DNA from: Bacillota bacterium
GTDB taxonomy: Bacteria; Bacillota; Clostridia; Acetivibrionales; JAMNXU01
Length of the DNA: 64,000 nt
Assembly: GCA_023623175.1 (NCBI GenBank)
Contig: JAMNXU010000022.1
Coordinates: forward strand, 4,181 to 68,180
Direction: 5' to 3'
In this document: piece after piece, positions 16,754 to 42,440 of the stretch
Layout of the letters: each line of letters starts with the position of its first letter
Numbering within the stretch: position 1 is the first letter of the stretch
Program-made: the position numbers and the translations under genes
Notes under the pieces: model-generated
Database searches by the model: none
Told to the model about the DNA's origin: nothing
The model's input: the letters and a program-made list of their open reading frames with translations, nothing else

Positions 16754-16850
16754 ATGGCCGGCATTCAAACAATCAATAAAACATCAGTGTTGATTTTCTT
16801 ATGATGAAACCTGTACATATAAAAAAATTAAGAAAGTGAGGTCTTACACT

Positions 16851-19280
16851 ATGATTCCCAAAATGAGCAGAAAGGCTTTTTTATCGCTGTTTTTGGCGTT
16901 GGTCCTTAGCTTGACGGTGCTGGTCCCCGGAACGGGCGTATTTGCTGATGAAGGTTCGCCCGGAAGCGTGTCTCCTTTTGCCGGCGGCTCGGGTACGGAA
17001 GAAGATCCGTACCTGATAGAAAATGCCGAACAGCTGGATGAAGTGAGAAACTATCTTGATTCGCATTTTCTGCTTACCGGTGATATTGACCTTACTGCCT
17101 ACCTGTCAAAGGACGGCAAGGGATATAACAACGGTGCCGGATGGCAGCCTATCGGGACTGAAGAGCAACCTTTCCTGGGCAGTTTTTACAGTGCGGGATC
17201 CGTAATTAAAGGCCTTTACATAAACCGCGGTGACGAAGACTACGTAGGTTTGTTTGGTTACCTGGGTCCTGGTGCTATTGTGTCTGTATGGCTGGAAAAT
17301 GTGGATGTAACTGGAAGAAACAAAGTCGGCGCATTGGCGGGAGCAAACTACGGGGTGATAATTGAAAGCTATGCAACCGGCTCAGTTACGGGCAATGAAG
17401 ATGTGGGCGGACTCGTGGGGCACAATGTTGAATCCCTCATGGATTCTTACACTGATTGTACCACCGTGGGGAACAAAAGTGTCGGAGGCCTGGTCGGAAG
17501 AAACAGCGATTATGTTGCCGACTGTTATGCCAGGGGAACCACGAAGGGCACGAGTTGTGTCGGCGGACTGATAGGTACCCACGAAGATGAATTATATTAC
17601 AGCTATGCTGTTGGACCCGTAAGCGGAAACAGTGACACCGGGGGACTGGTAGGGCTTTTCGATGGCTATATTGTATTTAAAAGCTATTATGACAAAGATA
17701 CCACCGGTCAGTCGGACACCGGCAAAGGCGAACCCAGGAGCACCGAGGAGCTGAAATTCCGCGCAAATTACGAAAGATGGGGATTTGCACATATATGGAC
17801 AATAACCGACGGTGAAACCTATCCGATATTGCGCTGGCAGGAAGGAGCTCCCATGGGCGGTTTCGGCGTAATGATTCCGAGCGGCGCGGCGCAGCCGGGG
17901 GTACAGTGTATTTTAAAAATTCTTTACGCCATGGATGAATACGGCACCACACGAAACGATTCTGCAGAAGTTACCGTGTATAATGAAACCGACGGAGAAG
18001 TTCTTTTCCAGTCGGAAGCAGAATTCAGGGACGGAGAAGCGGATGTGCCGTTTGTACTGAATAATACCGGGACTTATGTGTTGCGTGTCAATGTTGAGGG
18101 TGTAACCTATTCTTCAAAAATCTTGGTAGAGGTTGTAAAACCGGTATTTGCAGGTGGCAGCGGCACGGCCGAAGACCCGTACCTGATAGCTGACGCAATC
18201 CACCTGGATAATGTCAGGTACTGCCTTAATGCTCATTTCAGGCTGATAAGCGATATTGATCTGAATGTTGCTCCCTACAACGAAGGAAAGGGCTGGAAAC
18301 CAATCGGAGGTTATCCCTATGTATTCAGCGGGCAGTTTGATGGCAACGGGAAGACAATAAGGGGTCTTTATATTAACCGCCCCGGAGAAGATGATGTTGG
18401 TTTGTTTGGGATAATCTGGGGTAACTCTGTTTTGAAAAATATCAGGCTTGAAAATGTGAATGTAACAGGTGAACACTATGTAGCCGGGCTGGTCGGCAGT
18501 ACCAATTACGACACTGAAATTGCAAACTGCTACGTATCAGGCATCATTACTGCCAGGACCGATGCCGGGGGTATTGCCGGCGAAAACTTGGGTAGTATTG
18601 TTAACAGCCATTCTTCATGCAAAGTTGTCGCTGAAAGATATGTAGGAAGCCTGGCAGGCTGGCACACGAGCGGTGAAATAAGGAACTGCTCCGCCACAGG
18701 CGATGTAACCGGCAATGATGTTGTCGGAGGCCTGGTCGGAGGCAATGACGGTTATATTTACCAGTCTTATGCAACGGGAACGGTTACCGGTAAAACCGGC
18801 GACAGTATCGGTGGCCTTTCAGGCGATAATTTCGGGGTAATTGCCGAATGCTATGCCACCGGCAATGTTGAAGGCATTGAAAGTGTCGGAGGACTTGTAG
18901 GGTATAATTTCGGGGAAGTGCTCAGGTGCTATGCACTGGGATCCGTCAACGGCAAAGAGATGGTCGGCGGTGTGGTCGGATACAACGAGAGTGGAATCGT
19001 CAACACGACCTTTGCCGCCGGAAGAGTCAGCGGAATTGAAAATATTGGCGGAATCGTGGGACTGAATGAAGGCGGAGCAGTCAAAAAATCCTACTATGAC
19101 AGCCAGACCACGGGTCGCTCCTTTAGTGAAAACAGGGACGGCATTCCCAAAGCATCCGCTGAGATGAAGAAAAAAGATACGTTCTATGCCTGGGATTTTG
19201 ATACGGTTTGGGATATTGCCGAGTCACAAACCTATCCTTTCTTCAGGTGGCGCAATGAATTGAATGCAGGTTCCAAATAA
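16851..19280 (+). CDS. secreted GLUG-motif repeat protein (internally duplicated)
   Basis: It has a signal peptide (MIPKMSRKAFLSLFLALVLSL) and more than 20 repeats of VGGLVG / GGLVG type. Two homologous halves each begin with FAGGSGT-EDPYLI. Confidence 0.7.
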   Translation: MIPKMSRKAFLSLFLALVLSLTVLVPGTGVFADEGSPGSVSPFAGGSGTEEDPYLIENAEQLDEVRNYLDSHFLLTGDIDLTAYLSKDGKGYNNGAGWQPIGTEEQPFLGSFYSAGSVIKGLYINRGDEDYVGLFGYLGPGAIVSVWLENVDVTGRNKVGALAGANYGVIIESYATGSVTGNEDVGGLVGHNVESLMDSYTDCTTVGNKSVGGLVGRNSDYVADCYARGTTKGTSCVGGLIGTHEDELYYSYAVGPVSGNSDTGGLVGLFDGYIVFKSYYDKDTTGQSDTGKGEPRSTEELKFRANYERWGFAHIWTITDGETYPILRWQEGAPMGGFGVMIPSGAAQPGVQCILKILYAMDEYGTTRNDSAEVTVYNETDGEVLFQSEAEFRDGEADVPFVLNNTGTYVLRVNVEGVTYSSKILVEVVKPVFAGGSGTAEDPYLIADAIHLDNVRYCLNAHFRLISDIDLNVAPYNEGKGWKPIGGYPYVFSGQFDGNGKTIRGLYINRPGEDDVGLFGIIWGNSVLKNIRLENVNVTGEHYVAGLVGSTNYDTEIANCYVSGIITARTDAGGIAGENLGSIVNSHSSCKVVAERYVGSLAGWHTSGEIRNCSATGDVTGNDVVGGLVGGNDGYIYQSYATGTVTGKTGDSIGGLSGDNFGVIAECYATGNVEGIESVGGLVGYNFGEVLRCYALGSVNGKEMVGGVVGYNESGIVNTTFAAGRVSGIENIGGIVGLNEGGAVKKSYYDSQTTGRSFSENRDGIPKASAEMKKKDTFYAWDFDTVWDIAESQTYPFFRWRNELNAGSK

Positions 19281-31470: not shown

Positions 31471-31510
31471 AAAAGGCATGGCCCTCATACAGGGATACCA
31501 TGCCTTTTTA
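31471..31510 (+). terminator. rho-independent terminator after rbr
   Basis: AAAAGGCATGG pairs with CCATGCCTTTT as a perfect stem, followed by a T tract. Confidence 0.85.
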
Positions 31511-32034
31511 TATAAGAAATTTAGTAATCGTTTTTTTAATCCCTTGTTTTATAAGTTCAGGCCAATACGAAATAACTCATTGTCAATGGAGTATTTCACA
31601 GGCTTAATAAACTTATATGGCAGTATAAATTCAGCTGAGAGAGCCTGAGTGAGCCTGATACGATAATAAAACCCGGTATTAATGAAACTTTTTTGGTGGT
31701 GTTGCAATTAAGCGTAATTTTGTATATTAGTTTAACTAAAATTATGTTACCGGGCAAAAATGATATTTAATATTTTGTGAGAACTGTAAATATTTGTTTT
31801 TAAAAAGAGGAATTTGTAAATAAATGGCCTGAATAATTGTCAAATTGTCGCGCAAAAGTATGAATATTTTTTGAAAAAGCGTTTCTATGTCGTGAAACCA
31901 CTTGCTTTTAAGATTTTAGAATATTAATATATATTTATATGATAGTGATTATATGTGTTCAGATTATTACAACATAAGGTAATGAATGAAATTATTTTTA
32001 TTATTTGAGACTTGTGATAAAACGGTGCGTCAAA

Positions 32035-33066
32035 ATGTACACAATGGAGACTTATATAAAAATATTTCAATACGCGAAAGACAATAATGCCACGGACATT
32101 CACCTTACACCGGGCTCTGTTCCTGTTATGAGGGTAGACGGTGAAATACACAAGATGCCTTTTGAAAAAGTGCTCCCGAGAGATACGGAGTATCTTGTGG
32201 ATGAAGTTCTTAACGAGGAGCAGCAAAACCATCTGAGGCAAAGGCATTTTCTCAATTCCCCCGTCGTAATCAGGGAAATCGGGAGAATTCGCGCCAATAT
32301 TTTTCAGCAGAGGGGCACCTATGCAATTAACCTGAAGCTTTTGGATATGCCCTTGCTGGATGAAGAGGTACTGGGCATCCCCAAGGCAGTGATGGACCTT
32401 CACATTTTAAAGAGCGGGCTCATCCTGATCTGCGGCAGGAGGAAATCCGGCAAATCCACGACATTGTCAGCGCTGCTCAGGAAGATAAGCGAAAAAAGGA
32501 TATGCCATATCATTACCATAGAGGATCCCATTGAACATCTGTACAAACACGACAAATCCATTATCAATCAAAAGGAAGTTGGCATTGATGTAAACAGCTT
32601 TGAAGAGGGGATTTATTCCTCAATGGCCCAGGACCCGGACGTTATAATGATCAGCTCGGCGAATGAGCCTGAAACAATTGCCGCGGCCCTGACAGCCGCT
32701 GAAAACGGGCATCTTGTCATTACGACATTTCAGTCCGGCAGCACCGTGGAAACAATCGAAAACATCATCGGCATGTTTCCTGTCGACAGGCGAAACCATA
32801 TCAAGATGCAGCTCAGCAATGTGATTGAGGCAATAGTTACGCAGCAGCTTATCCCCGCAGCTGACGAAAAGCGCAAGGTGCTGGCGACAGAGATCATGCT
32901 TGCAACGGACGCCATGAGGAACCTTATCCTTGAGAACAAGATATACCAGATTCCATCGGCGATAAAAGCAAGCCGGTCGCTGGGAATGCAGACCATGGAA
33001 GATTCGGTAAGGGAGCTTGTTGAGAAGGGATTGATAACACGGGAAACAGCTGCGCTTTTGTTATAA
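32035..33066 (+). CDS. PilT-like secretion-superfamily NTPase with degenerate catalytic motifs
   Basis: It can be aligned by eye to PilT over its whole length (ATDIHL...PVMRVDG, ITIEDPIE, AAENGHLV, SLGMQTMEDS). The Walker A is GRRKSGKST. Walker B and the His box are replaced (see findings). The start could be 32035 or 32044. Confidence 0.75.
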   Translation: MYTMETYIKIFQYAKDNNATDIHLTPGSVPVMRVDGEIHKMPFEKVLPRDTEYLVDEVLNEEQQNHLRQRHFLNSPVVIREIGRIRANIFQQRGTYAINLKLLDMPLLDEEVLGIPKAVMDLHILKSGLILICGRRKSGKSTTLSALLRKISEKRICHIITIEDPIEHLYKHDKSIINQKEVGIDVNSFEEGIYSSMAQDPDVIMISSANEPETIAAALTAAENGHLVITTFQSGSTVETIENIIGMFPVDRRNHIKMQLSNVIEAIVTQQLIPAADEKRKVLATEIMLATDAMRNLILENKIYQIPSAIKASRSLGMQTMEDSVRELVEKGLITRETAALLL

Positions 33067-33216
33067 GATCGCCCTTTGCTCAAAATGGCCGTTTGATACG
33101 GGTCCGCCGATAAGGTGCCGGACAGCTGACAAGAGACATAGAACATGGGCAACCCGTGATTATAATTAACACTGTTTTATATTAATTAATCTGATTTGTT
33201 AAGAAGAGCGAGGAGA

Positions 33217-34896
33217 ATGCTGGTGCTCAAAGATATCGGCAAACGTGGCTTCTATCCGTTGATAGGAGCGTTCCGTTATGTTTCGGTTTTTTTAACGATA
33301 CTGATGTATGTCGTGCGTGGCGTGATTGAGCAGTATGATTATGCCATGATGCTTTTGCTGGTACTCAGCATAGCGTTTTCGGTACTTCTGCTTAATTACC
33401 TTTACAGGAAAAGCCTTGACAACATTCACAGGGTCTTAGTGCTGCTTGTCATTGAAATAAGCGCGTTGTCCTTCCTGACATACATAACGGGTGGTTTGTC
33501 CAGCCCCTTTATTTGGTGCTTTCTCAACCCATTACTTATAATATCCAGTTTTTCTCTTTCCGCCCGCAAGATTTTCTTCCTGGTCGCCAATTTCATATTG
33601 TTGTGCGTGATCGGGTATGCCAGCGAAAGGGAAACAGCGGTCAGCGAATTCTTTATTGCGCGTTCGAACATTATTTTAAGCTACCTGCTGATATTGATAC
33701 TTGTTAATATATTGCTGAGGTACAATCGCAAAATACTGGAGAAACACCAGGAGTTGCGGGAAACCAAGGAACAGCTTGAGGAGTCCAACAGGAAAATCAA
33801 GGGCATAATCCGGGATATCCTCGGCATGTACGAAACCGTGCACGCCTTTCCGGGACAGGAGAGCCGTCGGAAAATCGTGGACATCATCCTGGATTTTGCT
33901 GAGAGGGTTTCTCCCGAAGCCCAGGCTTTTTTCATGCAGAACGGGGGATATATAGATGAAAATCCTATTATTACGAAAATTGAAGATCCCCTGGTAAGGG
34001 AAGAGCTTTACAACCTGAATATTTCGAAAATACCTTGGAAAGACATTTGGACGAGAAGATTGAAGCACGGCATGATGGCGGCGATGATAAGGGTGTTCAA
34101 CTTCAGGGATTATGGAGTCATAGGACTGGTGCTGCCCGCGTCAGAGTATAACAAGGCGAGGGAGGAATATGACTCGAACCTGCTGCTGTTTTCAAGGCTC
34201 GGCGCTACGTTTTTCGACAGGATTGAAACCGACGAGATAAATTATGAACTGGCCGTTGCCGACGAACAGAAACGGATAGCCGAGGACATCCATGACAGCG
34301 TGGTCCAGAGGCTTTTTGCCGTGTCGTGCTTTACATACGACATCATAAAGAATTGGGAGCAGATTCCTGACGCGGAAAAGAAAGAGCAGTTCACAACGGT
34401 CATGGAGACCGTCCAGAGCTCGCTCAGGGATCTGCGCTCCACCATTTACAACCTTAGCGACAGGATGAACCATACTGATCAGTTCCGAGGCAGTATTGAG
34501 GCATACCTAGAAAGCATGGGCAAGCTCAGCGGAATTGACATGCATGTGGACATGAAGGGCAACTTCAATGACCTGGCGGTAGGCGCCAGGAAGGCGCTTT
34601 ACAGGATTATAGCCGAAGGCGCCGGAAATGCCGTAAAACATGCTAGTTGCTCGAACATTTATGTGAACCTCGAAGTCAACGAGGATAAAACCGTTCTCAC
34701 GATAAAAGACGACGGTATCGGTTTTGACGTTCAAAAAGCCGAACAGGAAAAGAGAGGACTTGGACTGCACAATATGAAGAACCTCGTGAGAATTTTCAAC
34801 GGCGATATTTCCATAATTTCGGGGGAAGCCGAAGGTACGGCCATAGATATTAAGTTTGACAGCAGGGACGTGCTGAAAAAGGCTGAGTACGTCTGA
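33217..34896 (+). CDS. polytopic sensor histidine kinase (HisKA_3 / NarL-partner type)
   Basis: The first ~190 aa have about five or six TM segments. The H-box is AEDIHDSVVQRLF, and the HATPase motifs are NAVKHA, DDGIGF and GLGLHNM. The start is ATG 33217 or GTG 33223, the latter 6 nt after GAGGAGA. The ORF track starts at 33196. Confidence 0.85.
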   Translation: MLVLKDIGKRGFYPLIGAFRYVSVFLTILMYVVRGVIEQYDYAMMLLLVLSIAFSVLLLNYLYRKSLDNIHRVLVLLVIEISALSFLTYITGGLSSPFIWCFLNPLLIISSFSLSARKIFFLVANFILLCVIGYASERETAVSEFFIARSNIILSYLLILILVNILLRYNRKILEKHQELRETKEQLEESNRKIKGIIRDILGMYETVHAFPGQESRRKIVDIILDFAERVSPEAQAFFMQNGGYIDENPIITKIEDPLVREELYNLNISKIPWKDIWTRRLKHGMMAAMIRVFNFRDYGVIGLVLPASEYNKAREEYDSNLLLFSRLGATFFDRIETDEINYELAVADEQKRIAEDIHDSVVQRLFAVSCFTYDIIKNWEQIPDAEKKEQFTTVMETVQSSLRDLRSTIYNLSDRMNHTDQFRGSIEAYLESMGKLSGIDMHVDMKGNFNDLAVGARKALYRIIAEGAGNAVKHASCSNIYVNLEVNEDKTVLTIKDDGIGFDVQKAEQEKRGLGLHNMKNLVRIFNGDISIISGEAEGTAIDIKFDSRDVLKKAEYV

Positions 34897-34903
34897 AGAG
34901 AAG

Positions 34904-36106
34904 TTGCGGAGGAAAGCGCGGGATACATGGGATATGGGCAAAAGGGAATACGAAATACTTGCGATATTGTCAATCATAATTTTGCAAATTGTGCTGGGTT
35001 ACAGCATTTTGCCGTCGCTCATGGGCTCCTCGGGGTACATGTATGTATTCAGGCCCCTGTTTTGGCTGGCGCTTTCAGTTTACGTGCTGGTAAGACCAAG
35101 ATGCAGGTTTAAGGGGAAACTGAAGCTCAACAGGCTGTTTATACTGTGGAGCGCAATTTGTGGCTTGCTGTATATTTCCCTTTATTTTTCCGGTGGCTTC
35201 CTTGACGGAATAGGATACAGCCCCTACTCGAAAAAAGCTTTGGGCGTAATCACAAATTTGCTGAGTTTTGGCAGCACGGTTTTAATGATGGAATGGGTGA
35301 GAAATTATTTAATAAACCGGGTGAAGAAAAAATATATTGCCCTTTTCAGCATTGCGACGGTTCTGATTTTCAGCGCCCATAATCTTAATCTCAGGATGGC
35401 CCTGAACCTGGAGTCCTTGCCGCAGGCAGTGCAATATCTCGGCGAGTATGCCATTCCCGAGATTATGAGCAATATATTACTTACCTATATGGCATATATC
35501 GGCGGGGCATCCCCCGCGATGGTATACAGCGCGGTTACGTCGTTTCCGATGTGGATTACTCCGGTGCTTCCTGATCTTGAATGGATCACGAAGGCTTTTA
35601 TCGGGATAATAATGCCGGTTATTTTCCTGCTTGTTATAAGGCAGTTGTACAGAAGAAAATCCAGGGAAATTAAATACAGGGAATTCAAGTATGAAAACCC
35701 CAGGTCATGGATCGGTGTAAGTATTTTTTCAATCCTGCTCATATGGTTTGCCATAGGGATTTTTCCCGTGTTTCCTACCGTTGTCCTGACAGGGAGCATG
35801 GAGCCGGCGATATATCCCGGAGATGTGGCATTGATGGTTAAAACGGACGGAAAGAACATTAAAGTGGGTGACGTGATCCAGTATTGGACCGGTGAGGTTT
35901 TCATCATTCACAGGGTGATAGATATTGATGAGGCAACGGGCAGGTACCAGACCAAGGGGGATAACAACTCAAGCCCGGACTCAAGGCTTGTTTCCCCGGG
36001 ACAGGTGAAGGGAAAGCTTTTGAAAGTAATACCGAAGCTGGGACTGCCCGCCGTAATGTTTAATAATTCAAATAGAAACAGAATCCGCGAACAGGCAGAG
36101 TTTTAA
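34904..36106 (+). CDS. SipW-type (S26B) signal peptidase I fused to an N-terminal ~7-TM domain
   Basis: The C-terminal ~110 aa carry GSMEPAIYPGD (catalytic Ser), IHRVI (catalytic His) and KGDNN, as in the archaeal/ER-type SipW peptidases. The preceding ~285 aa are polytopic membrane sequence. Confidence 0.75.
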   Translation: MRRKARDTWDMGKREYEILAILSIIILQIVLGYSILPSLMGSSGYMYVFRPLFWLALSVYVLVRPRCRFKGKLKLNRLFILWSAICGLLYISLYFSGGFLDGIGYSPYSKKALGVITNLLSFGSTVLMMEWVRNYLINRVKKKYIALFSIATVLIFSAHNLNLRMALNLESLPQAVQYLGEYAIPEIMSNILLTYMAYIGGASPAMVYSAVTSFPMWITPVLPDLEWITKAFIGIIMPVIFLLVIRQLYRRKSREIKYREFKYENPRSWIGVSIFSILLIWFAIGIFPVFPTVVLTGSMEPAIYPGDVALMVKTDGKNIKVGDVIQYWTGEVFIIHRVIDIDEATGRYQTKGDNNSSPDSRLVSPGQVKGKLLKVIPKLGLPAVMFNNSNRNRIREQAEF

Positions 36107-36126: not shown

Positions 36127-37209
36127 ATGAAGCTGAACAAAAGACTAAAAGCAGGGTTGCTCCTGTGCATTGGAATATTGTTCCTGGCAACCGCGTGGTA
36201 TACGGTTGCAGAGTGGCGGACTCCCAAATTTGTGGAGCAGAAGAATCTTATCTATTCTTTTGCGAGCAACGCCAAAATCGGCTACAGGGTTTTCCTGAGG
36301 CCTAATATAGTTTATGATGAAAATTTTATCGAAGAAGGGAAATATTATATTTCCAAGTATATTGACCACATTGAAGCGGTGTTCAGATATGAGTTTACGG
36401 GCAGCGAAGAGGCGGAACTGAACGTCGAATACGATGCCACGGCTTACCTGCAGGGGCTTTATGGCGATGAAAACGGGGTGCTCTGGAGCAAGCCTTATGA
36501 ATTGATTTCGACAAGCTCCGAAAAGGGACAGGTTTCTGAGAAAAGCATCGAAAGAAAGGTTAATATACCCCTGGATAATTATGTCGCTTTAAAAGAAAGC
36601 TTTTACCTTGATACCAGGGTGAACAGTCCAGTTGTTTTGAACGTGGTTTTCAACGTCAAGACCGTTGTCAACACTCCGAATGGAACGCTCAGCGAAACAT
36701 TGAGTCCCAACCTGGTTATTCCCATAGGCGAGACAGTTTTCAGCATGGATGGAAATCCTGAAGCGCAGGGCGGCAAAAGACTGGAGGAAACGGTAAAGGT
36801 CAGGTTGCCTTTGAATTATCAGAAAATAGCGCTCCTGGCATCCTTTGCGCTTTTGCTGGTTGTCGCATTTATTGTTGTCTGCCTTGCCAAGGAAGAAAAG
36901 ATGCCTGACGCTTTCCAGAAGGAGATCAGGGGCATATTCAAGGAATACGGGGACAGGCTTGCGGGCATGGAAAAGCCGGTTCCGTACCATATGCTGGATA
37001 TCATCAGCGTCAATTCCGTTGAAGACATAGTCAAGATCGCCGACGAGATAGGGCAGCCGGTATTCTACTACATGGTGGACACCCGTACCGAAAGGAAAAT
37101 AGAGTTCTACGTGTTTGACAACACTAGAACCTATTACATGGTTATTTTTGGCGAAATCGAGAATACCGGTGATTCCGGCGCAGAGGAGGACACTAATAAG
37201 GAAATTTAA
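36127..37209 (+). CDS. bitopic membrane protein of unknown function (possibly DUF5305-like)
   Basis: 360 aa. It has an N-terminal anchor (AGLLLCIGILFLATAWY), an ectodomain of about 210 aa, a second TM segment (IALLASFALLLVVAFIVVCLA) and a cytoplasmic tail of about 115 aa. An AGAGGTG RBS precedes the start. Confidence 0.5.
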   Translation: MKLNKRLKAGLLLCIGILFLATAWYTVAEWRTPKFVEQKNLIYSFASNAKIGYRVFLRPNIVYDENFIEEGKYYISKYIDHIEAVFRYEFTGSEEAELNVEYDATAYLQGLYGDENGVLWSKPYELISTSSEKGQVSEKSIERKVNIPLDNYVALKESFYLDTRVNSPVVLNVVFNVKTVVNTPNGTLSETLSPNLVIPIGETVFSMDGNPEAQGGKRLEETVKVRLPLNYQKIALLASFALLLVVAFIVVCLAKEEKMPDAFQKEIRGIFKEYGDRLAGMEKPVPYHMLDIISVNSVEDIVKIADEIGQPVFYYMVDTRTERKIEFYVFDNTRTYYMVIFGEIENTGDSGAEEDTNKEI

Positions 37210-37210
37210 T

Positions 37211-37248
37211 GGCACCAAAGTAGTATATTCGCATACTACTTTGGTACC
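37211..37248 (+). other. intercistronic stem-loop
   Basis: GGCACCAAAGTAGTAT pairs with ATACTACTTTGGTACC (one mismatch, 6-nt loop), starting 2 nt after the stop of the previous gene. There is no U tract. Confidence 0.6.
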
Positions 37249-37397
37249 GGGAGAATGGTACTCTGCAAGGTAAAAATCACACGCTCCGGTAATTTACAAT
37301 GGCATATTTTACGTATAACATAAAATCACAGGAAATAACGAAATAAACATAAATTCGACATTTCGCGAAGAAATATGATTTGGGAAAGGGGTATAAC

Positions 37398-38102
37398 ATG
37401 AAAAGGTCTAAATTCATTTTACTGGCGTTGGTGGCGGCATTGGTACTGATGGGCGCGGGATACGCAGCCTGGACGCAGACGTTTACAATCGATAACAACA
37501 TTACAACGGGAGAATTATTCATTAAGGTCGAGCAGGTACAAAGTGGGAACAAAATTTTAGTGTATAACGAAACTGATAATAAATATGTCGATCTCCCGGA
37601 AAATCATTATTTAGGCAATATTTTAGATTTTGCTGTAGGCAAGGAGTCCGGAGAAAAAAACAGAGAAGGTCAAAGTACTTTGGAATCATTGTCATGTACT
37701 ATTGAACAGATGCATCCCGGAACCAAATTAATCCACACCTTGAAATTTACGAATCTGGGAACTGTAAAAGCTACTACAAAAGCCATCAGCAAGAGTGGAG
37801 AAAATGATGAGATAGCTCCTGAGACCGGGCACATGCCTTTGTGGAACGATATGATTTTAACAGTAAGAAAAATAAAAGGTGATCATGAGGAAAGTAGAGT
37901 AATTGGACAAGATACAACAGGTATTGATAAATTTAACAGCTTTAAAAATGCTTTGGCCTGGGCGGTTGGCGATCTTGACGTGGGAGAAAATGTTACAGTG
38001 GTAATTGAGCAGGAGCTTCCCGAAAGCAGTGATAATCAAACAGAAAATATAAAAAATCTGGTATGGAAGGTCATACTGCAATTTGAGCAGGCCTTTGATT
38101 AA
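37398..38102 (+). CDS. TasA/camelysin-like secreted protein, paralogue 1 (candidate major subunit)
   Basis: It has a SipW-class-like signal (MKRSKFILLALVAALVLMGAGYAAWTQTF). The TTGELFIKV and HPGTKLIHTLKFTNLGTV motifs and a C-terminal strand ending in LQFEQ parallel TasA. A GGAAAGGGG RBS precedes the start. Confidence 0.65.
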   Translation: MKRSKFILLALVAALVLMGAGYAAWTQTFTIDNNITTGELFIKVEQVQSGNKILVYNETDNKYVDLPENHYLGNILDFAVGKESGEKNREGQSTLESLSCTIEQMHPGTKLIHTLKFTNLGTVKATTKAISKSGENDEIAPETGHMPLWNDMILTVRKIKGDHEESRVIGQDTTGIDKFNSFKNALAWAVGDLDVGENVTVVIEQELPESSDNQTENIKNLVWKVILQFEQAFD

Positions 38103-38142: not shown

Positions 38143-38174
38143 AAATGGCACAAGCCACCTGACTTGTGCCATTT
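38143..38174 (+). other. stem-loop after paralogue 1 (attenuator/terminator-like)
   Basis: AAATGGCACAAG pairs with CTTGTGCCATTT as a perfect 12-bp stem around an 8-nt loop. Confidence 0.6.
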
Positions 38175-38207
38175 ACAGTATATGGCGGGGTTAGCCGGGT
38201 GGTAAAG

Positions 38208-38876
38208 ATGAAGAGATTTCACAGTACGAAATATTTACTGGTAACAGCGGTGATTGCACTTATCCTGATGGGATTCAGCTATGCCATGGCAATGCAGGCA
38301 GGCTTCGTGGATGCCTACATGTCGAATAACGCTTTAATTGAGTTCATACCCGATGAGTGCGGAGTATTGACTGCAAGCAACGGTGTAACTGCCTCCGTGG
38401 ATTTCAACCGCGACATTGCCGGGAAAATAGTCGATAAAGCTCATATTAAGCTTACCGCCCGGGGTTTCTACCCGGGAGCCCGAGTAGTTTATAACATTGC
38501 GGCCAGGAACATAAGCAACATACCTCTTACGGTTGATCAGTACAAGCTTGAAATAGACGACAAGAACCAGTCCCTGAGGGATTTAATAAGATTTTCCTGC
38601 AACGTGAAATTGTATAAGGAGAACGACAGTTATTACAATCTGCTCGGGTCATTTAAAAATATAGGAATTGACGAACTCGCCGCAAATTTGACATCAATTA
38701 TGAAGTATAGAAAAATAGATGTAAATGAGAAAATTGTGCTCGAATTCAGCGAACATATAAGTCAGTATCATCAAATGGCCGCCGGAAAAAGCGGATTGTC
38801 CTATAAGCTGGTTCCGGTATTCAAACAATATTTCCCGGGCGAGGAACAGGAAGACGAGGCTGAGAAAACCACATGA
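38208..38876 (+). CDS. TasA-like secreted protein, paralogue 2
   Basis: Its signal (MKRFHSTKYLLVTAVIALILMGFSYAMAMQAGF) carries the same G-x-x-Y-A motif, and the body is beta-rich. It is more divergent than paralogue 1. Confidence 0.5.
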   Translation: MKRFHSTKYLLVTAVIALILMGFSYAMAMQAGFVDAYMSNNALIEFIPDECGVLTASNGVTASVDFNRDIAGKIVDKAHIKLTARGFYPGARVVYNIAARNISNIPLTVDQYKLEIDDKNQSLRDLIRFSCNVKLYKENDSYYNLLGSFKNIGIDELAANLTSIMKYRKIDVNEKIVLEFSEHISQYHQMAAGKSGLSYKLVPVFKQYFPGEEQEDEAEKTT

Positions 38877-39397
38877 TCAGGATTTTCCGAAAAAGATACA
38901 GAAGGCGAAAGAAGGTCAGATTTGGCAACCTGCAGCATATAGGGACCGTCTGCGTTGCAGTGGTAATAGCCTGTGCGCTGCTCGGAGTTGCCTATGCCGT
39001 GTGGAACCAGTCCTTCGACATTTTCAGTTCAATAAGCACGGGCAATATCAGCATTGCCATAAGGGATATAAATGTCGAAAGTTCAGATGATTACGAAACA
39101 TTTTCGTTTAATCCGATAAGGCAGGGAAATGTTGTAAGGGATGTGGAAATTAACGTGGTGACCGAATCAAATCCTTTCAACATGATCCTTGTTTTTACTG
39201 TCGAAAACAACGGAACCGTACCCGTGGTCTGCGAGGGAATCGACAACAGCGCAGGAAATGAGGTTGATGTTTTGCTTCTCGAGGCTCCGGCGAAAATTGA
39301 GCCGGGGCAAACGGGCAGCATCAGGGTGAAGCTTGCCAGGGGTTATTGTGCAGACTTTGAGTTCAGTTCCTTTGTTCGTTTCAAGCAGGCCACATAG
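38873..39397 (+). CDS. TasA-like secreted protein, paralogue 3 (short)
   Basis: An ATGA overlap with paralogue 2 suggests coupling. It has a basic N-terminus followed by CALLGVAYAVWNQSF, and the STGNISIAI, FTVENNGTVPV and IEPGQTGSIRVKL motifs. Confidence 0.55.
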   Translation: MIRIFRKRYRRRKKVRFGNLQHIGTVCVAVVIACALLGVAYAVWNQSFDIFSSISTGNISIAIRDINVESSDDYETFSFNPIRQGNVVRDVEINVVTESNPFNMILVFTVENNGTVPVVCEGIDNSAGNEVDVLLLEAPAKIEPGQTGSIRVKLARGYCADFEFSSFVRFKQAT

Positions 39398-39469
39398 ATG
39401 TGAAAAAAGTCCAGGAGTTGATGAGGTATCAGCAGATATATCGGCAAAATTGCAATACTTGCATTTGCA

Positions 39470-39994
39470 TTGACATTCAGTCTCATATTTACATGTGTGG
39501 CCGTCGCATTGTGGAGAGACGAAAGCGAGGTACGGTTCAGGCTGACAATTTCCGCCCCTGAGCCGCAGGGCGGGAACTGCGGGTGCGGTGAAATTACTTC
39601 AGTTCCGCAGGGCATACAGATGCTCACGGACACGTACAATTGCATTAAAAACATGCTTCACGGTTACGGTCTTCAGCTGGAAGCGCGCATTGAAGTAATA
39701 ACCGCCATGCCTTCCGGCAGCATGACACAATCGCAGCTGCTGGCGGAATACCACCAATACCTGGATGAGATAAATGAATTCAGGAAAGATATCAACCGGT
39801 TCGGCAACTGCATTAACAAGCTGGCCGCGTTTTTCAGCAAGCTGACGTGGCAGGAGAAACAAGAATATCCTGATTTCTGGGACAGGCACCAGGAATTGTG
39901 GGATATGGCCGACGACCTGTGGAACATAAGGGAAGGCCTTTACGACCTGGCCCATGATCTGTATGAAGCAGGAAAAAAGAAAATCCAAAAATAA
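39470..39994 (+). CDS. hypothetical N-terminally anchored helical protein
   Basis: This 525-nt ORF encodes a hydrophobic N-terminus and a helical, heptad-like C-terminal part. It has no canonical start with an RBS (see findings). Confidence 0.4.
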   Translation: MTFSLIFTCVAVALWRDESEVRFRLTISAPEPQGGNCGCGEITSVPQGIQMLTDTYNCIKNMLHGYGLQLEARIEVITAMPSGSMTQSQLLAEYHQYLDEINEFRKDINRFGNCINKLAAFFSKLTWQEKQEYPDFWDRHQELWDMADDLWNIREGLYDLAHDLYEAGKKKIQK

Positions 39995-39995
39995 G

Positions 39996-40631
39996 TTATG
40001 TACGATCATCCTTTAGCCTGTTTATGTATAATGCGGCCTGGGTGCGGTCATCAAGGCCGAGCTTGGCAAGAATGCTGCTGATGTGTTTTTTCACGGTGTT
40101 TTCGCTTATAAACAGTTTTTCCGCGATGCTTTTGTTGGAAAGCCCTTTGCCCAGGCATTCCAGGACTTCTATTTCACGCCGGGAAAGACTCTCCATGCCT
40201 TCGGCGCCCTTGGAGTGCTGCTGACTTTGGAGACCGCCCTGTTCAACAAAGGCAGGGTCAAAGTATTTTCTTCCTCTTAAAACGGTTTTTAAGGCGTAAA
40301 CTATATCCTCGGGAAAGGCGTCTTTGAGGATATAACCGTCGATCCCGACCTCAAGGGCCTTTTCAAAGTCCCGGGAAGAAGAAGAGGAGGAGAGGATTAC
40401 AAATTTCGAGCCCAGATTTTTTGATTTAGCGGCGGAAATGAAGTCCAGTCCGCTTTCGTTTTTCAACCGCATATCCACCAGGACAAGGTCAAAATACTGT
40501 TCGGACAGGCGTTCCAGTGCGGTGCGGACGTCGTTGGCCTGTTCCACCGTTTTGATGTCGGCCTCCGAGATCAGTATATTTTTAATTCCGCTGCAGACAA
40601 GCGGATGATCATCCACTATTAAAACATTCAT
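39996..40631 (-). CDS. NarL/LuxR family response regulator
   Basis: The receiver domain reads MNVLIVDDHPLV...DLVLVDMRL. The LuxR HTH reads LSRREIEVLECLGKGLSNKSIAEKLFISENTVKKHISSIL. Confidence 0.9.
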   Translation of the reverse strand: MNVLIVDDHPLVCSGIKNILISEADIKTVEQANDVRTALERLSEQYFDLVLVDMRLKNESGLDFISAAKSKNLGSKFVILSSSSSSRDFEKALEVGIDGYILKDAFPEDIVYALKTVLRGRKYFDPAFVEQGGLQSQQHSKGAEGMESLSRREIEVLECLGKGLSNKSIAEKLFISENTVKKHISSILAKLGLDDRTQAALYINRLKDDRT

Positions 40632-40775: not shown

Positions 40776-42440
40776 ATGGATATGGGACAAGTTAATACGC
40801 TTTTATCAATGCAGTACGGCAGAAAATTAAAGATAATTGATTGGTTTTGGGGTAATGAATCGGTGAGAAGTTATTCGGGTGCATTTTTTATACCATGTGT
40901 TTTTAATACTGCTGTTGGGGCATTTGTTTGGACCGCTGATGCAGGATCCTGGGTCGTCTTATTTTTACTCCTGTTTTTTGCCCTGTTGAGCATTGCACTG
41001 TTTGCAGCTCTGATTCGGTTGAAGGACAGGAAAAAGGAAACTGAAACACTCAACGATTTGCTTACCGGCATGCTCAATTCCATTAATGATGGCGTTATGG
41101 TCGTCAATCCTGAAGGTAAAGTGACCATGCTGAACAGGGCCGGGGAAATTCTGACGGGCAGGACGGCAGAACTTGCTCTGGGTATGCATTACAGGGATGT
41201 TTTTGTTTTAAGATCTGAAACTGGCGACGACGATGTGGAGGACCCGGTCGAAAAGGTATTTAAGACGAATAAGAGTCAGAAATTGGAATCGAGCGCCGTC
41301 CTGGTTTCCGCACACGGGAAGAGGTATGATATTGAGGCCGATGCCGCGCCGATCGGGGACAATAAGAGCAGTAACGCAGGTGTTGTGCTTGTTTTCAGGG
41401 ATATAACCGAAAAGAAAGAGCAGGACAGGAGAATAGAGTATTTAAGTCAGCACGATTCCTTAACAGGCCTCTACAACCGCATGTTTTTTGAAAAGGAAAT
41501 CAAAAGGCTCGATAACGAGTCCAATCTTCCCATTTCAATAATAGTTGGCGATGTAAACGGATTGAAGCTTACAAACGACATCTTTGGACATGATGCCGGC
41601 GATCAGCTTCTGGTTATGGCGGCGGAAGTATTTAAAAAGGTCTGCAGACCCGGGGATATAGTCGCGCGCGTAGGGGGAGACGAATTTTATATTCTGCTGC
41701 CCGGGACCGATGGGAGCGAGGCAATGAAATTAATATCGAAAATGAAGCAACGGTTTTCAAAAAGAGTAGTCAGAGCGGTCAGGGGCAGCATATCCATGGG
41801 TTGCGCCACTAAAACCTCTGCAGGGGAAGACATCATCCAGGTGATGAAAGACGCCGAAAGAATGATGTACATGGCAAAAACCCTTGACAGGGAAGATGTA
41901 AAGAGATCCACGTTTAAGAATATTCTGGAAATTTTTCATAAGAACAGTCCCCAGGAAAAAGAGCATGCGAAAAATGTCAGCATGATCTGCGAAAAGATCG
42001 GAAAAGCTATGGGACTGTCGCAGGGTGAATTGAAAAGGCTCAGGGAAGCCGCGATGTTCCATGACATTGGAAAAGTCATACTGGATGAAAGCCTGCTTGA
42101 CAGGACTGTAAAGCTTACGGGACGTGAAAAGAACGAAATGAAACATCATCCTGTCACTGGCCACAGGATCCTGTATTCCTTTGATAATACCCTGGATTTG
42201 GCTGAGCCGGTTCTCGCGCACCATGAAAGATGGGACGGGAAGGGATTCCCAAAGGGACTTAAAGGGGAGGAGATTCCCAAACTCGCCAGAATCATAGCCG
42301 TTGCCGAAAGCTACGATACGATTTTGAACAGGCTCGGCACTGGCGCAAACACGGAAGAAGCCATCAACATATTAAGGCAGCAGGCCGGAACCAAGCTCGA
42401 TCCCAATATTGTCAACGTGTTTGTAAGCATACTTAACTGA
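40776..42440 (+). CDS. membrane PAS-GGDEF-HD-GYP protein (c-di-GMP synthase/phosphodiesterase)
   Basis: It has two N-terminal TM segments and a PAS region. The GGDEF motif is intact (RVGGDEFYILL), with RPGD placed five residues upstream (an I-site). The HD-GYP part reads FHDIGK...HHERWDGKGFPKGL. Confidence 0.9.
   Translation: MDMGQVNTLLSMQYGRKLKIIDWFWGNESVRSYSGAFFIPCVFNTAVGAFVWTADAGSWVVLFLLLFFALLSIALFAALIRLKDRKKETETLNDLLTGMLNSINDGVMVVNPEGKVTMLNRAGEILTGRTAELALGMHYRDVFVLRSETGDDDVEDPVEKVFKTNKSQKLESSAVLVSAHGKRYDIEADAAPIGDNKSSNAGVVLVFRDITEKKEQDRRIEYLSQHDSLTGLYNRMFFEKEIKRLDNESNLPISIIVGDVNGLKLTNDIFGHDAGDQLLVMAAEVFKKVCRPGDIVARVGGDEFYILLPGTDGSEAMKLISKMKQRFSKRVVRAVRGSISMGCATKTSAGEDIIQVMKDAERMMYMAKTLDREDVKRSTFKNILEIFHKNSPQEKEHAKNVSMICEKIGKAMGLSQGELKRLREAAMFHDIGKVILDESLLDRTVKLTGREKNEMKHHPVTGHRILYSFDNTLDLAEPVLAHHERWDGKGFPKGLKGEEIPKLARIIAVAESYDTILNRLGTGANTEEAINILRQQAGTKLDPNIVNVFVSILN

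Follow-up and report, generated by a model that had tools for sequence, protein, structure and literature searches.

We describe here the gene at positions 32035 to 33066 of a 64,000-nucleotide stretch of a Bacillota genome (contig JAMNXU010000022.1), the whole of which is termed “the window.” Its product, which we call pseudo-PilT (pPilT), belongs to a clade that is best explained, from sequence comparisons, as having descended from a clostridial PilT retraction ATPase and as being catalytically dead. The gene heads a nine-gene locus that is probably a cassette for AbpX/TasA-type (TasA-superfamily) matrix fibers. That cassette context is new; sequences of the pPilT family were already in the databases, where they are labeled “type IV pilus twitching motility protein PilT,” a designation that wrongly implies twitching motility.

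32035..33066, plus strand: pPilT gene, 343 amino acids (aa), N2D and CTD PilT domains (TIGR01420, PilTs in the PDB, AlphaFold2 (AF2), Foldseek)

The affiliation of the protein with PilT is clear from both sequence and predicted structure. Against TIGR01420, the PilT/PilU family model, it scores 332.5 bits, above the cutoff of 319.1, and a Pfam scan matches it to PF00437 at 89.9 bits. When all PDB sequences were searched with HMMER, Aquifex PilT (2EWV) ranked first, with an E value of 9e-76, and the other top matches included Geobacter PilT4, Thermus PilT2, and the PilT and PilU of P. aeruginosa. Hydropathy analysis found no hydrophobic segment, pointing to a soluble, cytoplasmic protein. The structure predicted by AF2 with the clade alignment has a predicted local distance difference test (pLDDT) score of 91.5, and in Foldseek comparisons this model gives template-modeling scores (TM-scores) of 0.85-0.93 to PilT4, PilU, and PilT. 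Both the N2D and the CTD are present in the model; the complete two-domain PilT fold is therefore predicted to be retained.

The motifs of the ATPase lie as follows:

32434..32463, plus strand: Walker A/P-loop GRRKSGKSTT, residues 134-143 (HMMER alignment, comparison of clade and canonical states)
32512..32535, plus strand: retained Asp box ITIEDPIE, residues 160-167 (HMMER alignment, clade states)
32632..32673, plus strand: degenerate Walker B DPDVIMISSANEPE, residues 200-213 (HMMER alignment, clade states)
32707..32742, plus strand: degenerate His box GHLVITTFQSGS, residues 225-236 (HMMER alignment, clade states)

In Walker A, the canonical GPTGSGKST has become GRRKSGKST; the GxxxxGK[ST] outline is intact, with R, R, and K standing in for the canonical P, T, and G. 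The Asp-box glutamate, E163, is invariant in the pPilT clade and in canonical PilTs alike. Walker B has changed from DPDVIFVGEMRD to DPDVIMISSANE (VGEMRD to ISSANE), such that the canonical G-E-M-R corresponds to S-S-A-N; the catalytic Glu is now Ser and the Arg is now Asn. The His box, GHLVFGTLHTN in the canonical form, reads GHLVITTFQSG, with the first His intact and the second replaced by Gln. Finally, the AIRNLIRE motif appears as AMRNLILE, which retains A, N, L, I, and E but not the second Arg (R299). A sequence-only reading of this DNA had called the states of the Walker A, Asp, Walker B, and His motifs by eye, and all of those calls hold in the HMMER alignment to 2EWV. Alignment against PilTs in the PDB places neither a catalytic Glu nor a second His at the respective positions.

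These changes are not peculiar to the window. A search of 5.8 billion proteins recovered the pPilT clade as ~40 sequence clusters at 52-67% identity, below which identity falls sharply to ~42%, the level of ordinary PilTs from Desulfosporosinus, Lachnospiraceae, Oscillospiraceae, and others. Among 1.84 billion representatives at 50% identity, searched exhaustively with HMMER, the whole clade is reduced to a single entry, P0033, at 578 bits; no other single-domain protein exceeds 365 bits, and those that come next have canonical or nearly canonical motifs. We scored motif states in 39 clade members and used 80 canonical PilTs from the same search as the contrast set, taking as canonical-invariant those positions conserved in at least 90% of the 80. 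The catalytic Glu of Walker B is found in 0 of 39 clade members, its position being occupied by S, F, Y, L, or A, and the preceding Gly is Ser in 37 of them. The Walker B Arg is absent in 29. At the second His-box position, His persists in 10 members, while 23 have Gln and six have Arg, Lys, or Asn; the P-loop Lys is T, I, or A in 10 and Arg in three. The corresponding frequencies in the canonical set are 100% (G), 99% (E), 91% (M), and 96% (R) for Walker B, and 99% for the second His.

The alterations extend well beyond the single glutamate. Across the P-loop, Walker B, and the His box, the canonical-invariant positions P135, T136, G137, G207, E208, M209, R210, and H233 are altered in pPilT, as are D74, R101, N152, R180, R198, R243, and D246 elsewhere in the protein. 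Beyond the catalytic Glu, at least 10 canonical-invariant positions differ in the clade, among them the second Arg of AIRNLIRE, which is present in 100% of the canonical PilTs; this Arg and several of the other invariant residues are missing from most clade members. Another 43 columns, including R84, R86, N88, E163, D200, and D202, are conserved in the clade and in canonical PilTs both; the arginines of GRxRxN, the Glu of the Asp box, and the aspartates of Walker B are thus common to the two groups. Judged by these sequences, the catalytic loss is neither an alignment accident nor a private mutation.

Nor is the family decaying. The mean column identity across the 39 clusters is 68%, and the mean Kimura distance of pPilT (0.53) resembles those of the signal peptidase (0.50) and regulator (0.47) encoded in the same cassette, with larger values for the kinase (0.75) and the fiber subunits (0.74-1.01). 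The conservation of pPilT is therefore on a par with that of the best-conserved cassette proteins. Further, the ratio of nonsynonymous to synonymous substitution rates (dN/dS) of pPilT between two lineages is 0.13. These values indicate that the clade is under purifying selection. The sequence-only reading had proposed a pseudo-ATPase in place of a retraction motor, and that proposal is well supported at the level of sequence by the missing Glu, the purifying selection, and the changes at other invariant positions; in addition, no type IV pilus genes adjoin pPilT at any locus examined.

Other PilT relatives outside the clade also depart from the canonical pattern. The single-domain protein P0260 has a Walker B of ISELLEPE (Glu kept, Arg lost) and a His box of ALPT, perhaps an independent loss or an intermediate stage of one. 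P0241-P0261 are tandem double PilTs: each chain, 660-1020 aa long, contains the complete PilT unit twice. Both halves are canonical in most of them; in some, one or both halves are degenerate, examples being the first halves of P0248, P0254, and P0261 and the second halves of P0254 (AVSSLPD) and P0261 (VATDLPD). We considered whether the top HMMER matches of 700-1000 aa were Rosetta-stone fusions of pPilT and rejected the idea: they are tandem double PilTs with mostly canonical halves, and their scores add up two domains.

The pPilT gene is the first of its locus, and the kinase gene lies directly downstream, as the sequence-only reading had it. The assignment of the locus as a putative AbpX/TasA-type cassette stems from AbpX hits of profiles built from two of its products and from the presence of a DUF5305 protein and a SipW-type peptidase with multiple transmembrane (TM) segments; this composition agrees with that of described bacterial abpX loci. 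The features of the cassette, other than the pPilT gene, are:

31908..31943, plus strand: promoter-like hexamers (consensus scan only, 9/12 matches, weak)
33196..34896, plus strand: sensor histidine kinase, 566 aa, six N-terminal hydrophobic segments, cytoplasmic linker, HisKA_3, HATPase_c (Pfam, hydropathy, alignment A8)
34904..36106, plus strand: multi-TM membrane domain plus archaeal/endoplasmic reticulum-type signal peptidase I (SP10), 400 aa (TIGR02228, 78 bits)
36127..37209, plus strand: DUF5305 protein, putative signal-peptidase accessory, two TM segments, extracellular domain, cytoplasmic C-terminal domain (PF17231, 84.8 bits; hydropathy; literature)
37211..37248, no strand: inverted repeat, 16-bp arms, no T-run, strong hairpin (directly after the DUF5305 stop codon)
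37380..38102, plus strand: AbpX-like subunit 1, SipW-type signal peptide (profile A3 against AbpX 9sj2, E value 6e-7; TIGR04088 weak)
38166..38876, plus strand: secreted cassette protein 2, N-terminal hydrophobic segment (alignment A4, hydropathy; tblastn match in all loci)
38873..39397, plus strand: AbpX-like subunit 3 (profile A5 against AbpX 9sj2, E value 4e-6, from mature residue 1)
39470..39994, plus strand: gene 8, donor-strand-like N-terminus ALW...SEVRFRLTIS, helical C-terminal part (alignment A6)
39996..40631, minus strand: NarL/LuxR-type response regulator, convergent, end of the cassette (translation; Response_reg and GerE at all homologous loci)

The region 5' of the pPilT gene comprises 530 AT-rich nucleotides, and a rubrerythrin terminator at ~31472-31486 precedes the promoter-like hexamers. 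No Rfam family or riboswitch was found at E<=1 between 30000 and 43000, a span that includes this long 5' region. The ribosome-binding site of pPilT, noted as weak in the sequence-only reading, is indeed weak here; homologous loci carry GGAGG-like sites, and the weakness is thus specific to the window. The true start of the kinase is probably the ATG near 33217, and likely starts for the signal peptidase and subunit 1 are the ATGs at 34934 and 37398, respectively.

The signal peptidase corresponds to the “10-TM SPase I” (signal peptidase I with 10 TM segments) of abpX loci (bioRxiv 10.64898/2026.01.04.697558). Its best Foldseek matches are human SEC11A/C, and its N-terminal domain is multi-helical. 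This membrane domain (34934-35720) has no Pfam match, and E120 and R123 (P0121 numbering) are invariant in it among 32 homologues. A PilC/GspF-like platform was considered as its identity and rejected, the sole other Foldseek match being a weak one to the Rce1 CAAX intramembrane protease (probability 0.87, TM-scores 0.34/0.46). The inverted repeat at 37211-37248 lies between the machinery genes and those for the subunits and could be a regulator-binding site or an element of RNA processing or stability. Another cassette (L003, 15035-15062) has the core 8-mers of this repeat, AGTAGTAT and ATACTACT, again as an inverted repeat and in the corresponding intergenic gap.

Among the secreted products, subunit 1 aligns to AbpX 9sj2 from mature residue 2, and its mature end, AWTQTF..., corresponds to the donor strand. 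In the AbpX profile alignments of subunits 1 and 3, both of which start at the mature donor strand, QWSETLSL is paired with AWTQTFNI. Fiber formation by donor-strand complementation is a prediction for the window subunits. Secreted cassette protein 2 has no family match and is a putative minor subunit or tip. Gene 8 is restricted to cassettes that contain pPilT. In the window, no ATG, GTG, or TTG lies 5' of its hydrophobic N-terminal segment, an in-frame stop occurs at 39422, and the GTG at 39400 is out of frame, as might result from a start codon of another kind, a frameshift, or an error in sequencing. The start is normal at other loci.

A PAS-GGDEF-HD-GYP protein is encoded at 40776-42440, directly beyond the cassette regulator; it is not adjacent to the cassette at other loci examined, and at one of them (L090) a CdaA-type cyclic di-AMP synthase gene is found in its place. 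The 64-kb window holds no second PilT-family gene, and no pilus-related family was detected among 20 of its open reading frames (ORFs) scanned against Pfam; typical genes of an anaerobic Bacillota chromosome are present. An 814-aa GLUG-motif protein (16836-19280), probably a surface or adhesin-type repeat protein, is unconnected with the cassette.

The cassette recurs as a unit. Eight distinct complete cassettes (the window, L001, L003 (= L099), L086, L090, L091, L097, and L103/L094, the last being from Clostridium thermosuccinogenes, with its pPilT gene at 5155-6219 of L103) have the same nine genes in the same order amid unrelated flanks, and several partial contigs are collinear with them as far as they extend. 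The stop codon of pPilT overlaps the start of the kinase gene by 4 nt in L086 and L103; the two genes are separated by a 14-nt gap in L006 and L090. No type IV pilus genes were found in the flanks of at least eight homologous pPilT loci. The close clade of the peptidase, as found by protein search, mirrors the cassette (with C. thermosuccinogenes, Thermincola, and Dethiobacteria among its members), and the next homologues are 35-46% identical. A profile search of genome contigs with the pPilT clade profile was dominated by canonical PilTs and returned one clade locus (L006).

An exception to this uniformity is a second copy of pPilT (L088/L089) in the same genome as L001 (GCA_050952225.1), which also has a full cassette. 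At positions 10001-11573 of L088, pPilT is followed only by a 165-aa ORF that corresponds to the membrane domain of the cassette kinase, with its six TM segments; for this pair of genes, dN/dS is ~0.11-0.13 relative to the full cassette L093. The notion of a conserved two-gene module was rejected, as the short protein is confined to one lineage, and we consequently read L088/L089 as a decayed duplicate.

Three distant cassettes provide an informative comparison. They occur in Clostridiaceae bacterium 35-E11, Clostridium sp. D2Q-11, and Rossellomorea vietnamensis, and came from the protein search, the metagenome scan with the peptidase profile having reached close relatives only. In all three, the kinase and regulator genes are adjacent and are followed by those for the subunits and peptidase; DUF5305 is present in two. 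Neither a PilT-like gene nor gene 8 is found at these three loci. The kinases of cassettes lacking pPilT are full-length homologues of the window kinase with the same architecture. Strain 35-E11 has a canonical PilT elsewhere in its genome (L012), beside another secretion-ATPase gene. The existence of related cassettes without pPilT marks the protein as a lineage-specific addition and not as core machinery, and its gain coincides with the movement of the regulator gene away from that of the kinase.

From its sequence, we infer that pPilT cannot act as a motor. We tentatively favor the view that it is a non-enzymatic adaptor of the adjacent membrane kinase, such that a former motor would now be an accessory of an unrelated fiber system; we give this proposal somewhat less than an even chance of being correct. 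In such a scheme, pPilT would form a PilT-like ring or sub-assembly at the cytoplasmic face of the membrane, dock on the six-TM HisKA_3 kinase, and tune its kinase/phosphatase output; this output, acting through the LuxR-type regulator, would in turn set the expression of the peptidase and fiber-subunit genes. ATP binding may persist in the window protein and would not be a conserved function of the family. We favor this arrangement because the core fiber functions exist without pPilT, and because the kinase has lost its adjacent regulator and gained pPilT as an upstream, sometimes overlapping neighbor. It is also the kinase membrane domain that survives beside pPilT in the decayed duplicate L088/L089. 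Several observations weigh against the proposal. Gene order and spacing are the sole basis for naming the kinase as the partner, and the ring is assumed from homology. No pPilT-specific feature was found in the kinase, whose architecture is shared by the kinases of cassettes lacking pPilT. Moreover, in a mirror-tree analysis of nine related taxa, a weak sample, the partial correlation of pPilT was 0.59 with the regulator and 0.44 with the peptidase, and only 0.26 with the kinase.

Pseudoenzymes commonly act on an active paralogue or on the partners of one, a tendency that counts in favor of the main rival to the adaptor, a decoy or brake: the dead ring, co-expressed with the matrix operon, would occupy the docking site of PilT on the pilus platform or poison PilT hexamers, thereby blocking retraction. 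Pili might then stay extended for adhesion, or an extension-only, secretion-like mode might aid the passage of matrix fibers through the wall. The EpsE clutch, which is encoded in the eps operon of B. subtilis and acts on flagella, is an analogue of this model. We think both the brake and these outcomes unlikely. They are in keeping with the descent of pPilT from PilT (~40% identity to clostridial PilTs, full fold, partly kept AIRNLIxE-K motif), with the survival of an intact orphan copy where the rest of the cassette is gone (L088/L089), and with the finding that ATPase-dead V. cholerae PilT still serves as an adaptor (review PMC11656802); the model also gains plausibility because secretion of the Bsa matrix proteins in C. 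perfringens needs pilus assembly proteins and not PilT (PMC11580942). However, the AIRNLIRE Arg and the PilT-invariant D74, R101, N152, R180, R198, R243, and D246 are replaced, there is neither another PilT-family gene in the window nor a pilus family among the 20 scanned ORFs or in the flanks of homologous loci, and a decoy leaves unexplained the fixed place of pPilT directly before the kinase. A hybrid of the two ideas strikes us as quite unlikely: the pPilT ring, made from the AbpX matrix operon, would physically couple two otherwise unrelated filament systems, holding the type IV pilus machine so that it could secrete but not retract, and reporting that condition to the cassette kinase. 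Less credible still is a scaffold that docks on the multi-TM peptidase, on the cytoplasmic domain of the DUF5305 protein, or on both, and positions the sites of cleavage and polymerization of the AbpX-like subunits. Consistent with it are the tight operon that pPilT shares with both genes (8-21 nt gaps), the possession of a cytoplasmic domain by DUF5305, and the partial correlation of distances between pPilT and the peptidase, but the peptidase and DUF5305 are found without pPilT in related bacterial loci, DUF5305 also accompanies dedicated signal peptidases in archaeal fiber loci, and the membrane domain of the peptidase is unlike PilC/GspF platforms.

The remaining explanations concern the degenerate active site itself. 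According to the sequence-only reading, pPilT binds nucleotide and hydrolyzes it poorly, and could act as a switch, sensor, or scaffold; as a switch, it would have a nucleotide or cyclic di-GMP (c-di-GMP) bound at that site as the signal. The window protein does retain GxxxxGKS/T, the Asp box, the Walker B aspartates, and the GRxRxN arginines, and it may still bind ATP. As a function of the family, though, nucleotide binding fares poorly: a quarter of the clade members have no P-loop Lys, which argues that such binding is not conserved, and one protein without it (P0026, P-loop GDSGS-IPAT) heads a complete cassette. The c-di-GMP element of the idea draws on the GGDEF/HD-GYP gene that adjoins the cassette in the window. 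That gene is not conserved at any other locus, and neither an MshEN/PilZ-type or other known c-di-GMP-binding module nor a riboswitch was detected; this part of the idea is unsupported. Overall, we consider a ligand switch improbable. That pPilT remains an active ATPase by means of non-canonical residues, or is a decaying relic without function, seems to us highly improbable. An acidic residue does lie three positions past the lost Glu (E211 in the window protein; most clade members have D or E), yet canonical PilTs have that acid too, alongside the Glu (GEMRD), and therefore E211 is no replacement for it; PilT studies hold the Walker B Glu to be essential for activity (PMC5065972). Full-length conservation over ~40 clusters and the dN/dS of 0.13 exclude a relic.

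These considerations bear on how matrix fibers are understood. For fibers of the TasA/AbpX type, Sec export, a dedicated signal peptidase, and strand donation outside the cell are considered sufficient; a cytoplasmic component that is conserved and derives from a motor would add an unexpected layer of intracellular control. Also, a natural pseudoenzyme among PilTs and secretion ATPases would show which parts of the fold matter beyond catalysis. If the hybrid reading, in which the ring couples two filament systems, is true, pPilT would be the first case of a fiber of the TasA superfamily being controlled by a cytoplasmic element derived from a motor, as well as the first natural PilT-family pseudoenzyme. 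The presence of the cassette in a named, sequenced species, C. thermosuccinogenes, makes these hypotheses directly testable.

The closest known relatives of pPilT are PilT and PilU themselves (TIGR01420; PDB 2EWV, 6OJX, 5ZFQ, 3JVV, and 9N32), with which it has its length and two-domain fold in common and 33-42% identity. Its P-loop has the same outline as theirs, and the Asp box, the aspartates of Walker B, the arginines of GRxRxN, and the greater part of AIRNLIxE-K are also shared. Unlike them, it lacks the catalytic Glu, the Walker B Arg, and the second His, the P-T-G of its P-loop is replaced, and R198, R243, D246, and R299 are lost. Also unlike them, it is not encoded with pilB, pilC, pilM, or pilins, but heads a fiber operon dependent on Sec and a signal peptidase. 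All four motifs are intact in characterized PilT paralogues, the four of Geobacter being an example (PMC5065972). In targeted full-text searches of the literature, neither a natural pseudo-ATPase of the PilT family nor a PilT-like gene in a TasA/AbpX locus came up.

Bacterial abpX loci encode a dedicated 10-TM signal peptidase I, DUF5305, AbpX-like minor subunits, histidine kinases, and diguanylate cyclase/HD-GYP proteins (bioRxiv 10.64898/2026.01.04.697558); archaeal work on Tafi likewise ties DUF5305 to a dedicated peptidase (PMC11821415, PMC12337348). The window cassette resembles these loci in its W-containing N-terminal donor strand, multi-TM signal peptidase I, DUF5305, histidine kinase, and nearby c-di-GMP enzymes. 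The sub-family to which it belongs differs from those described in having a fixed PilT-derived protein, gene 8, and a relocated regulator, and the terms ATPase and PilT have no mentions in the text and supplement of the AbpX preprint (bioRxiv 10.64898/2026.01.04.697558).

A link between a clostridial matrix system of the TasA family and parts of the type IV pilus has a functional precedent in C. perfringens sipW-bsaA-bsaB-bsaC, where secretion of the SipW/TasA-like Bsa matrix proteins needs PilA3, PilB2, PilC1, PilD, and PilMNO, and not PilT (PMC11580942). In that organism the matrix system is tied in trans to genuine pilus genes and can do without PilT, whereas here a PilT-derived gene lies inside the matrix operon. 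Roles for pilus-motor proteins that are independent of their own ATP hydrolysis also have precedents: ATPase-dead point mutants of V. cholerae PilT still act as an adaptor for PilU, and M. xanthus PilB acts as a signaling protein in exopolysaccharide production (review PMC11656802). Those cases involve laboratory mutants or active enzymes in pilus systems, whereas the loss in pPilT is natural, clade-wide, and outside pilus loci.

ArlH/FlaH of the archaellum and TadZ/CpaE of the Tad pilus are P-loop proteins that do not hydrolyze nucleotide and that control a filament machine or determine its position. They are like pPilT, as we envisage it, in that a degenerate ATPase fold regulates a system of surface filaments or acts as its hub. 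They are unlike it in origin, ArlH/FlaH being KaiC/RecA-like and TadZ/CpaE ParA/MinD-like, and in that they act on ATP-driven machines, whereas AbpX/TasA fibers polymerize extracellularly by strand donation.

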